Shown in pieces: positions 6,332-61,285 of a stretch of DNA of 64,000 bases. The stretch covers positions 144,924 through 208,923 of the forward strand of contig CAZEED010000002.1 in the NCBI GenBank assembly GCA_964510945.1. Reading direction: 5' to 3'. The position numbers and the translations under genes are program-made. Numbering within the stretch: position 1 is the first letter of the stretch; the number at the start of each line of letters is the position of its first letter. The notes beneath the pieces are model-generated. The model was not told the DNA's origin. It made no database searches and saw nothing but the letters and a program-made list of their open reading frames with translations. The stretch is from an uncultured Candidatus Saccharibacteria bacterium (GTDB taxonomy: Bacteria; Patescibacteriota; Saccharimonadia; Saccharimonadales; JAGQNJ01).

Positions 6332-7254
6332 TAACTTCAATTTGCGGTAATAATGCCTACGCCATTAATTCAAGATTATCTGATTTGAAAAATAACTTCA
6401 TCAAAAAATATGGCGCAATAAATCTAGAACAATATGATGGGGAAGAAGATTCTTATGAACAAGTTATTGATTCAGTCACTAATACTTCATTATTTAGTGA
6501 CAAAAAATTAGTTGTAATCGAAAATGTTGATAAAAATAAGGAGTTAACTGATAACATCGAAGATTTTTTGTCCAGATCTGAAGAGTCAGATCTCGTGCTT
6601 GTTATGCGTAACATCGATAAACGCTCAAAGCTGTATAAACTCATAAAAGCTAAAACAGACTTCCTAGAGTTTAATATCGATAATCATATAAGCCTAGATA
6701 AATGGGTAACAAACGAGGTCAAAAACCGTGGTGGTTCAATAGACCAGCAGTCAACGCGACTATTGATAGATAAGACAGGTAATGATCAGATAAAACTAAA
6801 TAACGAGATAGATAAGTTATTGGCATATCAGCCGATTATTACCCAGAGTAATATTGAGTTATTAACAGTAAATTCTCCCCAAAGCACGGTTTTTCAGCTA
6901 CTGGACTCGGCTTTTAGTGGGGATTATTCAAAAACACTGGCAATCTATGAAGAACAGCGTGCGCAAAAAGTTGAGCCAATAGCAATACTGGGGATGATTA
7001 TTTGGCAATTGCACATTTTTGCGATTATCAAATTTTCTGATAATAAAACGCCGTCTGATATTGCAAAACAAGCCAAGCTTAATCCTTATGTAGTAGATAA
7101 ATCACGCCATGTACTTCGTAGAATCAATAAATCGTATCTAAAAAAGTTAATCAATAAAGTTGCAGAGTTAGACGTAAGCTTAAAAAGTGAGTCAATTGAT
7201 AGCGACAATGTATTAAAAAATTTACTTCTTGATATCAGCGAAGCTGTTTCTTAG
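6328..7254 (+). CDS. holA: DNA polymerase III delta subunit
   Basis: 308 aa with ATGA overlap to the upstream gene. Delta-like segments are LFSDKKLVVIENVDK and STVFQLLDSAFSGD. Confidence 0.75.
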   Translation: MITSICGNNAYAINSRLSDLKNNFIKKYGAINLEQYDGEEDSYEQVIDSVTNTSLFSDKKLVVIENVDKNKELTDNIEDFLSRSEESDLVLVMRNIDKRSKLYKLIKAKTDFLEFNIDNHISLDKWVTNEVKNRGGSIDQQSTRLLIDKTGNDQIKLNNEIDKLLAYQPIITQSNIELLTVNSPQSTVFQLLDSAFSGDYSKTLAIYEEQRAQKVEPIAILGMIIWQLHIFAIIKFSDNKTPSDIAKQAKLNPYVVDKSRHVLRRINKSYLKKLINKVAELDVSLKSESIDSDNVLKNLLLDISEAVS

Positions 7255-59078: not shown

Positions 59079-59201
59079 AACAGAGGAGTATTTTAGCGTC
59101 TAAAGTGGTAGAAGTCAACCAAGAAAGATTAATATTACAGACAGGTATCCTAAAAATTGAAATCTTAAAGTTTTGTAGATGCGCTGGTATACTAAAGCGT
59201 A

Positions 59202-59831
59202 ATGTTCGCAAACCTAACAGGATTAAACTTTGGAATATTCTTTGTCTCGCTACTTTTGGCTGTCTCTATACACGAGGCCATGCATGGTTATGCTGCGCAC
59301 TGGTTGGGCGACGATACAGCGCATCAGGCAGGCCGGCTGACACTCAACCCTCTAAAACACCTTGATTTGGTCACATCTATAATTATGCCTATGTTGTTAT
59401 GGCTACTGGGTTTACCGCCTTTTTTTATAGCAAAGCCAGTACCTTTTAACCCATGGAAAGTCAGGTACGGTGAATACGGTGCTGCAATGATAGGCCTAGC
59501 TGGTCCGTTAACGAATATCGTATTAGCGACTGTCGCTTCTTTGTTGCTGCATATTCTTGGGATCGCAGTCGGCACGCCGATTTATAACGCATTTGTCATT
59601 TTTATGGCTGTGAATGTTGCTATATTCGTGTTTAACATGATTCCTTTTCCGCCACTCGATGGATCTAGGTTACTGTATGCATTCGCACCAGAACCTCTGC
59701 AAAAACTAATGATGCAAATAGAATCGTTAGGGATGAACGCTATATTCATTTTTATGATGATAAGCTTTGTGTTTTTGTCGCCATTTATAATTCGTGCTAA
59801 TGAACTCATATTAAATCTACTGCTTTATTAG
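59202..59831 (+). CDS. Site-2 protease family (M50) membrane metalloprotease
   Basis: HEAMHG (HExxH within a TM helix) and FNMIPFPPLDGSRL (the NxxPxxxLDG motif). Confidence 0.8.
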   Translation: MFANLTGLNFGIFFVSLLLAVSIHEAMHGYAAHWLGDDTAHQAGRLTLNPLKHLDLVTSIIMPMLLWLLGLPPFFIAKPVPFNPWKVRYGEYGAAMIGLAGPLTNIVLATVASLLLHILGIAVGTPIYNAFVIFMAVNVAIFVFNMIPFPPLDGSRLLYAFAPEPLQKLMMQIESLGMNAIFIFMMISFVFLSPFIIRANELILNLLLY

Positions 59832-59848
59832 AATGATATAATTAGTCT

Positions 59849-60150
59849 GCTGGCTAAGAACCTATCCCAACAGTACGTTTTCGGTTATAGCAATTAATAA
59901 TTCGTTATGAACGGGTATACCGCTTCGCAACATATTCTTTAATATGTTTTGTCGCCTGACATCCGTTCATGTCGATTCTTATTTGTATAACAGTTCGAAA
60001 AGTACTGTTGGGGTAGGTTCAATTGCCAAACAATGATTATCTAACAACATATATTCGGGAGCTCAATATCAGATTTTGCCTTTGGCGGATGAATGCGAGC
60101 ACCCACCTGGGTAAAACCAGATTAATCATTGGTAAGTTAGCCAGCTTTTG
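59849..60150 (+). ncRNA. Candidate ~300-nt structured RNA containing a 163-nt 6S-like long hairpin
   Basis: Extended -10 TGaTATAAT at 59834-59842. GCTGGCTAA (59849-59857) pairs with TTAGCCAGC (60137-60145), followed by TTTTGATTTTG. Hairpin A arms are 59858-59883 and 59996-60020 (25 bp, one G-U, one bulge). The apical stem is AACATATT-cttt-AATATGTT. Hairpin B stem is CAATGATTA with TAATCATTG. Confidence 0.4.
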
Positions 60151-60224
60151 ATTTTGTGAATGATATTAGTTATTGATCACAAAACAAAAATAACATTGTG
60201 TAATCTCGGTCATGTTAGTATTAA

Positions 60225-60881
60225 GTGATGCCAAAAGAAGATAAAAAAGAAATACATAAAAGTTATGAGTTTAAGGATTTTGCGGAGTCTATGCGTTTTG
60301 TTCGTCAGGTAGCTGATCTGGCGGAAGTTGCTAATCATCATCCGAGGATACAGATCGATTACAACAAAGTGGAGCTATGGTTTACAACTCATGATAAGGG
60401 AAAAGTAACTGAAAAAGACGAGAAATTAGCCGAGCAAGTTGACGCTTTAATTAACGGTCAACCGTCTGTTGGCCAGTTGCCCTCTGAGCTAAAGTTTTAT
60501 GGCGACGGGGGCTCTCGCGGTAACCCAGGACCAGCCGCTGCTGGGTTTGTTTTGCTAGATATGAATGATCATTTACTAGAGAATGGTGGCGAGTTTATGG
60601 GTGTTACCACTAACAATCAGGCAGAGTATCATTCTTTAGAGATGGGGCTTGAGCGTGCTTTGGAGGCTGGAGTTAAGAAGATCCATGTATATATGGATAG
60701 TCAGCTAGCTATAAGGCAAATAAGTGGCCAATACAAGGTCAGGAGCCTCGAGCTATTGCCCCGGTATAATAACGTTAAGAGTTTGTTAGCTAAATTCGAT
60801 GAAGCTACCTGCACACATGTGCCACGAGAGCTCAACAAGTTGGCTGACGCAGAAGTAAACCGTATTCTAGATTCGCTATAG
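60225..60881 (+). CDS. Fusion protein: pterin-4a-carbinolamine dehydratase (PCD/DCoH)-like domain plus RNase HI-like domain
   Basis: N-terminal YEFKDFAESMRFVRQVADLAEVANHHPRIQIDYNKVELWFTTHD. The C-terminal DEDD pattern is FYGDGGSRGNPGPAA, NNQAEY, VYMDSQL and NKLADAEVN. Confidence 0.75.
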   Translation: MMPKEDKKEIHKSYEFKDFAESMRFVRQVADLAEVANHHPRIQIDYNKVELWFTTHDKGKVTEKDEKLAEQVDALINGQPSVGQLPSELKFYGDGGSRGNPGPAAAGFVLLDMNDHLLENGGEFMGVTTNNQAEYHSLEMGLERALEAGVKKIHVYMDSQLAIRQISGQYKVRSLELLPRYNNVKSLLAKFDEATCTHVPRELNKLADAEVNRILDSL

Positions 60882-60898: not shown

Positions 60899-61230
60899 AG
60901 CCAGATTATTGACTAATCGCTCGCTTTAACGTGGGAGGAAAGTCCGGGCAACGTAGAGAAGGGTAGTTGTTAACGACAACCGGGGGCAACCCTAGGGAAA
61001 GTGCCACAGAAACAAAACGTCCTTTTATAGGTCACGGTGAAAAGAGTGGGGTAAGAGCCCACAGTTTGCGATGGTGACATCGTAAAGAGGTAAACCCTAC
61101 CTGTTGCAAGGAGTATATTCACAAAATGGTTTCTCGCCAGAATATACGATGATCCGCTTGATTCTATCGGCAACGATAGAACTAGATAGATGATTAGTCA
61201 CGACTAAACCCGGCTTATAGATAATCTGGC
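60899..61230 (+). ncRNA. rnpB: RNase P RNA (bacterial type A)
   Basis: P1 pairs GCCAGATTAT with ATAATCTGGC. P4 is GGAGGAAAGTCCGGGC with AAACCCGGCTTATAG. AGTGCCACAGAAA is also present. The antisense ORF 60970-61173 is spurious. Confidence 0.9.
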
Positions 61231-61231
61231 A

Positions 61232-61265
61232 TTAAATAATCCTCAGTAAATTGAGGATTATTTAA
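61232..61265. terminator. Bidirectional terminator between rnpB and rplT
   Basis: TTAAATAATCCTCA-gtaaat-TGAGGATTATTTAA (a perfect 14-bp stem) with A/T-rich flanks on both sides. Confidence 0.8.
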
Positions 61266-61285
61266 TGCCAAGTTTTAAGTAATGT

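Follow-up and report, generated by a model that had tools for sequence, protein, structure and literature searches.

A probable 6S RNA gene of a Saccharimonadales bacterium carrying a 163-nt palindromic hairpin in its closing stem

6S RNA (SsrS; RF00013) binds the housekeeping RNA polymerase holoenzyme and serves as template for a product RNA (PMC4793215, PMC10578484, PMC12005410). The intervening sequences in 23S and 16S rRNA of Salmonella, Leptospira and Coxiella are extra, extended hairpins in a helix of a conserved structural RNA, with a long duplex that suits RNase III; the one of Coxiella is described as a selfish element in helix 45 of 23S rRNA (PMC4990558). Miniature inverted-repeat transposable elements (MITEs) of bacteria that are co-transcribed into RNAs, such as Correia/NEMIS, RUP, ERIC and Coxiella QMITE1/2, measure ~100-400 bp, carry inverted repeats at their ends and yield transcripts that form hairpins. 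In the candidate phyla radiation, insertions in rRNA genes are a hallmark, are group-I-intron-like and often encode LAGLIDADG endonucleases, with Saccharibacteria as the stated exception (PMC11270868). Here we describe a 393-bp gap (59832-60224) in a window of 64 kb, i.e. the whole stretch of DNA analysed, from an uncultured Candidatus Saccharibacteria bacterium (contig CAZEED010000002.1). This gap probably holds the ssrS (6S RNA) gene of a Saccharimonadales bacterium with a recent insertion of ~165 nt, the main part of which is an imperfect palindrome of 163 nt on the + strand (59858-60020, hairpin A), specific to this lineage. Literature searches revealed no publication that treats 6S RNA of Saccharibacteria or of the candidate phyla radiation, a co-mention of Patescibacteria and 6S belonging to an unrelated signal recognition particle study, nor any account of a hairpin or intervening sequence inserted into a 6S RNA. 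We are not aware of a described case either, and a hairpin insertion in the closing helix thus appears to be unreported for this RNA.

The gap extends from an M50 peptidase open reading frame (ORF, 59202-59831) to the ORF of a Pterin_4a+RNase H fusion protein (PCD-RNase H, 60225-60881). An earlier note, made from the letters of the window, had proposed a promoter-to-terminator non-coding RNA of ~300 nt in a gap without ORFs. All strings and coordinates given there were found in the sequence, and the proposed gene is borne out by a -10 box, a closing helix and a U-tract that are conserved in relatives. Strictly, the gap does hold a 42-aa ORF with a TTG start (60023-60151) and several of 20-30 aa, none of which is credible. 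The extended -10 promoter element TGATATAAT can be read directly at 59834-59842 on the + strand. It is followed by GCTGGCTAA (59849-59857), which is exactly complementary to TTAGCCAGC (60137-60145), and the latter continues into TTTTGATTTTG. Transcription would start at or near G59849, and the U-tract UUUUGAUUUUG (60146-60156, + strand) directly 3' of the closing helix would act as intrinsic terminator and define the 3' end. The resulting RNA, from TGATATAAT and ~G59849 to an end at 60146-60150, would comprise ~300 nt. A two-hexamer promoter scan found no -35/-10 pair in the gap; the promoter is of the -10/extended -10 type with no -35 box. Likewise, a scan for short-hairpin terminators gave no score in the gap, the "terminator stem" being the long-range closing helix. 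TATAAT-like boxes 6-7 nt before the closing helix are present in the related loci L113 (TGGTATAAT), L015, L017 and L014 (TGTATAAT), L111, L110 and most distant homologues, and a T-run follows the 3' strand of this helix in the window as well as in L113, L015, L017, L014, L111, L110 and L027. In having a -10 promoter of its own and a closing helix that leads into a U-tract, the locus resembles the stand-alone genes of 6S RNA.

The related loci were fetched via the flanking proteins (M50, fusion protein/RNase H), whose homologues are annotated as Candidatus Saccharibacteria, Saccharimonadales or Patescibacteria. In L015, L017, L014, L110 and L111, with fusion-protein identities of 71-83%, a sequence of 144-152 nt lies immediately 3' of the M50 gene and is 76-86% identical to positions 60029-60129 of the window. 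It is preceded by a TATAAT or TATACT box, closed by AGCUGAG...CUCAGC and followed by a T-run. From seven sequences a covariance model (R1) was built with a structure written by hand, hairpin A being removed from the window and from L011. Among the matches listed by the fusion protein/RNase H search, all of them distant relatives with at most 54% identity, R1 finds 14 metagenome loci with the RNA, always on the + strand and in 13 of them upstream of an RNase H gene. Such relatives inform the family model and not the age of the insertion. In many of the distant loci a tRNA lies between 6S RNA and RNase H, and rnpB follows RNase H. A second model (R2) was based on 21 relatives, with the window's own lineage left out. 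On the 64-kb window R2 gives one match, 60012-60151, with 108.8 bits (E = 1e-23). A weak second match of R1 at 6830-6917 (20.9 bits) was rejected, as it is absent with R2. Almost all of the 21 homologues are located upstream of the same PCD/RNase H gene, and in the relatives the conserved RNA sits 3' of the M50 protease gene and/or 5' of the PCD-RNase H gene.

At gathering thresholds, Rfam leaves the gap empty, finds only rnpB and tRNAs in the whole 64-kb window, and reports no 6S RNA above threshold in 19 related loci. A permissive scan of 59750-60260 placed RF00013 at 60019-60143 on the + strand with 24.2 bits (E = 0.0058, model positions 19-169 of 187). The matched region is hairpin B, and the unmatched ends of the model correspond to the outer helix GCUGGCUAA/UUAGCCAGC. 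In the homologous RNA of L027, L041 and L015, RF00013 matches over its full length with 36.6, 29.1 and 27.0 bits, respectively, all below 46.4. No other plausible Rfam family matches the conserved RNA. Its architecture, its motifs and its genomic context mark it as a divergent subfamily of 6S RNA in Saccharimonadia, which Rfam 15 does not call. The earlier note had thus named the right family and assigned it to the wrong part, since it saw the 6S architecture in hairpin A, whereas homology and covariation put it in hairpin B and the outer helix. Hairpin A itself was rejected as a part of 6S RNA, as it is absent from the relatives and matches no model.

A structure of six helices is supported by the 21 relatives. 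With this structure 92.3% of the cells hold a standard pair, compared to 38-44% after a shift of the 3' partners by 1-3 columns; both sides change in 32 of the 37 pairs, and none of 500 shuffles reached the observed values. The result is similar with the window included. Folded singly, the homologues adopt the same rod, in the order closing stem, large central bubble, internal stem and apical hairpin, and a small hairpin in the 3' side of the bubble is predicted in nearly all 21. With 137-152 nt the relatives are slightly short, but still typical, for the ~150-200 nt of 6S RNA, and the ~300 nt of the window exceed this range owing to hairpin A.

In the window (all elements on the + strand) the closing helix P1 has the 5' strand GCUGGCUAA (59849-59857), which pairs with 60137-60145 in nine Watson-Crick pairs with probabilities of 0.72-1.0 in the full-length fold. 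The equivalent outer helix of the family shows changes on both sides in 7 of 7 pairs, with 97% of the cells paired. P2 (5' strand UUGCCA, 60023-60028) pairs with 60130-60135 and P3 (5' strand AUGAUUA, 60033-60039) with 60123-60129. Both covary as family helices 2 and 3 (90-93% of cells paired), and a population polymorphism, G60025A, turns a G-U pair of P2 into A-U. The closing strands of hairpin B in the earlier note, CAATGATTA (60031-60039) and TAATCATTG (60123-60131), were recovered at these positions. On the 3' side the strands of P3 (60123-60129) and P2 (60130-60135), a bulged G (60136) and the strand of P1 (60137-60145) follow each other in the fold. The 5' side of the central bubble, UCUAACAACAUAUAUUC (60040-60056), is unpaired in all folds and, by analogy to the mechanism of 6S RNA, presumably serves as template region for the product RNA (PMC4793215, PMC12005410). 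The stretch leading into it, AATGATTATCTAACA, is invariant among close relatives. The internal stem P4 (GGGAGCUC/GAGCACCC), which contains an A-A mismatch, and the apical stem-loop P5 occupy 60057-60104 and can be aligned to the Rfam 6S consensus GGGAgCCc...gggcaCCC. Compensatory changes in the P4/P5 region replace, for example, G-C by A-U in L113, where the internal stem is concerned, and in L017, and by U-A in L111. Family helices 4 and 6 are 97-98% paired, and all 21 of 21 sequences share the two outer G-C pairs of the internal stem without change. The 3' side of the bubble (60105-60122) holds the small hairpin CUGG-GUAAAA-CCAG (60107-60120). A conserved 11-nt motif, CACCCACCUGG (60100-60110), agrees letter for letter with the Rfam 6S consensus, and the nucleotides flanking the bubble, GGGAGC and GAGCACCCACCUGG, align to GGGAgCCc and gggcaCCCACCUgg of that consensus. 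The rod of the relatives with its small 3'-bubble hairpin and the aligned GGGAGC...CACCCACCUGG are shared with 6S RNA. The scores of 24-37 bits set the whole subfamily apart, and the length of ~300 nt and the 163-nt side branch, which creates a three-way junction in the closing stem, the window copy.

By analogy to described 6S RNAs, the core would mimic an open promoter and sequester the housekeeping RNA polymerase holoenzyme in competition with promoters, and release would occur by synthesis of a product RNA templated in the 5' side of the bubble. In L015 (1752-1776), L017 and L014 the 5' bubble region can fold as an alternative hairpin, AAUGAU...AUCAUU, which competes with P3 and is present in the minimum free energy (MFE) folds of these three loci. 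It is reminiscent of the rearrangement by which 6S RNA frees the polymerase after product-RNA synthesis.

In the basal stem of hairpin A 25 pairs are formed, one of them G-U, and a single G is bulged out, in agreement with the earlier note on 59858-60020. The interior consists of a GUUAUA/UAUAAC helix, a partly paired region, a AUGAACGG/CCGUUCAU helix, an internal loop of ~14x14 nt, an apical stem of 8 bp and a CUUU loop. Among the six inverted repeats of the window with arms of at least 18 nt at most 400 nt apart, only the pair 59858-59880/59998-60020 encloses a long structured hairpin. The 302 nt from 59849 to 60150 (+ strand) fold with an MFE of -115.7 kcal/mol, compared to -65.6 +/- 5.2 kcal/mol for 100 dinucleotide-preserving shuffles (z = -9.7, none as good). 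On the - strand -109.0 kcal/mol (z = -9.0) were obtained, which is expected for a largely palindromic region. Alone, hairpin A reaches -69.6 kcal/mol on the + strand with four G-U pairs and -63.7 kcal/mol on the - strand with one. No ORF above 30 aa was found in hairpin A. Against Rfam it matches no family, the best result being a chance match to mir-983 (E = 1.2), and it shows no intron-like fold. It thus shares with the rRNA insertions of the candidate phyla radiation the position in a structural RNA gene and differs from them by lacking such a fold and an ORF. In length, ~300 nt, and in being structured the RNA resembles Ms1 of mycobacteria, a 6S-like RNA that is reported to bind RNA polymerase (PMC11077062). 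There is, however, no sequence or model relationship to Ms1, and the extra length comes here from one discrete insert, acquired recently by a 6S core that is otherwise canonical.

The comparison with L113 points towards a recent insertion. In this locus, which was reached through homologues of the M50 protein, the M50 protein is 95% identical to that of the window and the DNA ~87% identical over 4.3 kb, and the same promoter, 6S RNA and U-tract are found in 137 nt without hairpin A. The two sequences are collinear up to 59854 and again from 60023, with 3 nt between these points in L113, so that 59855-60022 replaces 3 nt and the boundaries of hairpin A are uncertain by 2-3 nt. The empty site of L113 reads GCTGGC-GAT-TTGCC, compared to GCTGGC-TAA-[163 nt]-AA-TTGCC in the window. 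Since the closing stem of L113 is a continuous 15-bp helix with one bulge, the insert interrupts the 5' strand of a helix. In the window this results in a three-way junction of P1 (9 bp), hairpin A and P2, with a 3' strand that is continuous except for one bulged G; according to the fold, P1 and P2 can therefore still stack. The AA linker between hairpin A and P2 (60021-60022, + strand) and A59856-A59857 could represent a target-site duplication of 2 bp, and removal of the 163 nt together with one AA restores the spacing of L113. The flanks differ by two substitutions from the empty site of L113 and AA is common in A+T-rich DNA, so this repeat is a weak sign.

Hairpin A is absent from L113, L114/L115, L015, L017, L014, L110 and L111, and altogether from every relative outside the window's species-level cluster. 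The earlier note had named loss of the structure in close relatives as a refutation of its proposal; such loss was found for hairpin A and not for the 6S core, which is kept in the relatives. The exact M50 protein of the window occurs on contigs of many independent metagenomes, which are 99-100% identical to the window over 59701-60300 (600 nt). On contigs of 11 samples, among them DRR774219, SRR19053153 and ERR4682460, hairpin A is always located at the 6S site, and it is identical in L001-L010. In L011 two substitutions are present, C-G to U-G and U-G to U-A, neither of which disrupts pairing on the + strand. Together with the excess of G-U pairs on the + strand (four versus one) they give a weak hint that pairing matters in the transcript. 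The similarity of the two hairpins was rejected as a sign of selection or transfer, since, apart from the divergent M50 allele, the flanks are equally similar (98.8% identity in hairpin A, 95-99% in the flanking DNA).

Energetically, the insert behaves as a module. The sum of hairpin A (-69.6 kcal/mol) and the deletion construct (-48.0 kcal/mol) is -117.6 kcal/mol, compared to -115.7 kcal/mol for the full RNA. Pair probabilities of P1, P3, P4, P5 and the 3'-bubble hairpin are virtually equal with and without hairpin A, and those of P2 are modestly lower. According to these calculations, hairpin A is structurally modular and leaves the predicted 6S core fold essentially as it is. Hairpin A would be a passenger, a palindromic DNA insertion of MITE shape, which is tolerated because it folds on itself. 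It would project from the closing stem ~16-18 bp from the bubble and would either simply be tolerated or undergo trimming by RNase III within the 25-bp stem, in the manner of rRNA intervening sequences. Accordingly, we would regard the locus as a divergent 6S RNA that tolerates a palindromic insertion, and as a curiosity rather than a new kind of system.

Regarding the origin of the insert, hairpin A could be a copy of a mobile palindromic element that transposed into the 6S gene and has further copies elsewhere, which we regard as possible, if rather doubtful. This explanation concerns the origin alone and is compatible with the assignment as 6S RNA. The format fits a MITE, with 163 nt, near-perfect terminal inverted repeats of 25 bp and an A+T-rich, imperfectly palindromic interior that holds neither ORF nor transposase, and so do the clean presence or absence between sister lineages and the possible flanking AA direct repeat of 2 bp. 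The latter is, on the other hand, close to chance expectation, and the G+C content of hairpin A (0.38) is no different from that of the genome (0.40). To our knowledge there is no insertion sequence with ends matching hairpin A, which also counts against a MITE. A precedent is given by Coxiella, where MITEs with 2-3-nt direct repeats reshape small RNA (sRNA) genes (PMC5896051); the position of hairpin A inside an sRNA gene and its possible 2-bp repeat are similar.

Bacterial MITE families are defined by many dispersed copies, whereas hairpin A was found at one site only. Within the 64-kb window neither another copy with up to three mismatches nor another long structured hairpin was present, and 404 kb of Saccharimonadia loci contained the copy at the 6S site only. 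No hairpin A was found in IMG/VR or among phages and plasmids. In 185,579 species-representative genomes (GTDB) an exact 19-mer of the arm gave six single-arm matches, with ~9 expected by chance according to our own calculation. They are single arms in unrelated coding DNA with neither partner arm nor similarity in the flanks, one of them in the Saccharibacteria contig L024. The scans of public collections required this exact 19-mer, and of the source genome the 64-kb window was searched, so that a low-copy element may still exist. The earlier note had taken many copies as the mark of a MITE; no additional copy was obtained from the collections searched. Its fallback, a palindromic or MITE-like element or an RNase III substrate, remains viable, with the format of a MITE in its favour and the lack of multiple copies against it. 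An origin of hairpin A by local duplication was rejected, as blastn against the window finds hairpin A itself only.

Regarding the fate of the insert, bacterial RNase III needs roughly two helical turns, and the intervening sequences of rRNA are excised by this enzyme. The 25-bp, almost perfect stem exceeds this length and is therefore a likely target, so that the mature RNA may be trimmed or consist of two pieces. Hairpin A could, by analogy, be an intervening sequence of the rRNA type, transcribed as part of the 6S precursor. Its excision would give a 6S RNA in two pieces, joined through P1 and the remnant of the stem, and processing would restore function. We put this forward tentatively, as one of the less likely courses. 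The insert lies within a helix of a structured RNA and the core fold is independent of it, and its sporadic occurrence in close relatives (the window's cluster and L011 only) is that of rRNA intervening sequences. Nevertheless, classical intervening sequences replace or extend the tip of a helix, whereas hairpin A interrupts one strand, and the host RNA is here 6S RNA, for which the literature searches found no such case. In addition, the rRNA genes of Saccharibacteria reportedly lack the insertions that are common in other bacteria of the candidate phyla radiation (PMC11270868).

A hairpin A that is not inert would be either the first intervening sequence described in a regulatory RNA or an added domain that alters the engagement of 6S RNA with the polymerase, the latter idea arising from its branch point where the closing stem mimics the -35-proximal promoter duplex. 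We consider this unlikely; if it were true, an ultra-small episymbiotic lineage would have remodelled a universal regulator of transcription. A functional gain in the narrower sense, with hairpin A as protein-binding or decoy module, as stabiliser or as second mimic of an open promoter, is very unlikely. It would be in accordance with the insert allele being the sole one seen in 11 samples of the lineage, with the two substitutions that keep pairing at the RNA level and the enrichment of G-U pairs on the transcribed strand, and with a large internal loop of its own flanked by 8-bp helices. However, the data stem from one shallow lineage without depth for covariation, for which two substitutions are no test, and the identity to L011 is no higher in hairpin A than in the flanks and indicates no extra constraint. 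Furthermore, hairpin A matches neither Rfam 6S nor any other family, the apical stem beyond the loop is no longer than 8 bp, and the MFE fold shows this loop partly closed.

Several points weigh against a 6S RNA gene with a tolerated passenger. No sequence reaches the gathering score of RF00013 (46.4 bits; window 24.2 bits), so that formal membership in the Rfam family fails. The covariation alignments were fitted to the structure of the model, which favours that structure, and unguided MAFFT with RNAalifold recovered the apical half only, the closing stems being misaligned. The branch point is situated ~16-18 bp from the bubble. By an analogy with promoter DNA that we draw from published work on E. 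coli, this would be close to the -30/-35 region, with which sigma region 4 makes contact, and the insertion may thus impair function rather than be neutral. Moreover, decay of the core would not yet be visible after so recent an insertion, and the status of hairpin A as passenger is the default reading.

The scores of 24-37 bits below the curated 46.4 could also be explained by a different rod-shaped sRNA family of Saccharimonadia that owes its Rfam similarity to generic shape and composition. This is quite improbable, as 6S RNA is the sole sensible match in four homologues of distant lineages, in three of them over the full model length, and CACCCACCUGG and the G-C pairs beside the bubble coincide with the 6S consensus. 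The size of the bubble, its 3' hairpin, the stand-alone promoter and terminator and the 137-152 nt are those of the 6S architecture, and the Rfam and R2 scans revealed no other 6S candidate within the window. A young ssrS pseudogene, inactivated by the insertion and with a palindrome that is relevant, if at all, at the DNA level only, is least probable: the branch point would lie in the part of the closing stem that, by the E. coli analogy, corresponds to the upstream promoter duplex, and missing decay proves little after a recent insertion, but the promoter and the U-tract are intact, as are both strands of every helix and the invariant motifs that flank the bubble, the three core polymorphisms improve pairs or fall in unpaired positions, and the retention of 6S RNA in all sampled Saccharimonadia lineages argues for a need.

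With a probable 6S RNA that carries a passenger hairpin, a 6S family is defined for Saccharimonadia with a fixed genomic address, 3' of the M50 protease gene and 5' of the PCD-RNase H gene and rnpB, by which 6S RNA can be annotated in these reduced genomes. Sister lineages with and without the 163-nt branch represent a natural experiment on how much of the closing stem RNA polymerase needs, and the pair also bears on the question whether bacteria process insertions in regulatory RNAs like intervening sequences of rRNA. For scans of this type, caution is advised in that the most striking hairpin of a structured region is not necessarily its functional, conserved part.

Downstream of the gap, an RNase P RNA of class A (rnpB) is encoded on the same strand at 60901-61233, 20 nt after the stop codon of the fusion gene. 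The same arrangement, directly 3' of a PCD-RNase H or RNase H gene and on the same strand, was found in 15 related loci as well (L014, L015, L017, L027, L028, L037, L038, L042, L044, L045, L046, L048, L052, L068 and L111). The conserved order of the array is 6S RNA, tRNA or small gene, RNase H and rnpB, and its genes may be co-transcribed. At the 3' end of rnpB a perfect inverted repeat of 19 bp with a 6-nt loop (61227-61270) is located between rnpB (+) and rplT (-), which is probably a bidirectional terminator.

The gene order near the fusion gene varies in close relatives. In the window rplT-rpmI-infC lies on the opposite strand downstream of the PCD-RNase H gene, and in L105, L113 and L114 a purD-like GARS gene is found 3' of the fusion gene. 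In L106 an ATP-grasp gene lies 5' of the fusion gene with ~70 nt between them, which leaves no space for a 6S gene there. The close PCD-RNase H homologue P0002 has a rearranged context, and the contigs of P0003 and P0004 begin just 5' of the gene. The locus is also mosaic, as seen at 59125-59824 of the window compared with L011 and at 3099-3313 of L114. L011 is 95-99% identical to the window except for the M50 gene (59-81%), and L114 encodes an M50 protein 92% identical to that of the window, yet its 6S RNA is strongly diverged and its PCD-RNase H gene apparently so. These sequence comparisons suggest recombination between Saccharibacteria lineages at the M50/6S/PCD-RNase H locus.

Several contigs break inside the invariant 6S stretch AATGATTATCTAACA, at window positions ~60032-60049: L009 ends there, L013 and L018 start there, and L007 (3838-4135) switches to unrelated sequence. 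The breaks near 60039-60049 were rejected as sign of a repeat, because the invariant stretch is common to co-occurring strains and L007 is chimeric. They look like a tangle of the assembly graph among these strains rather than biology.

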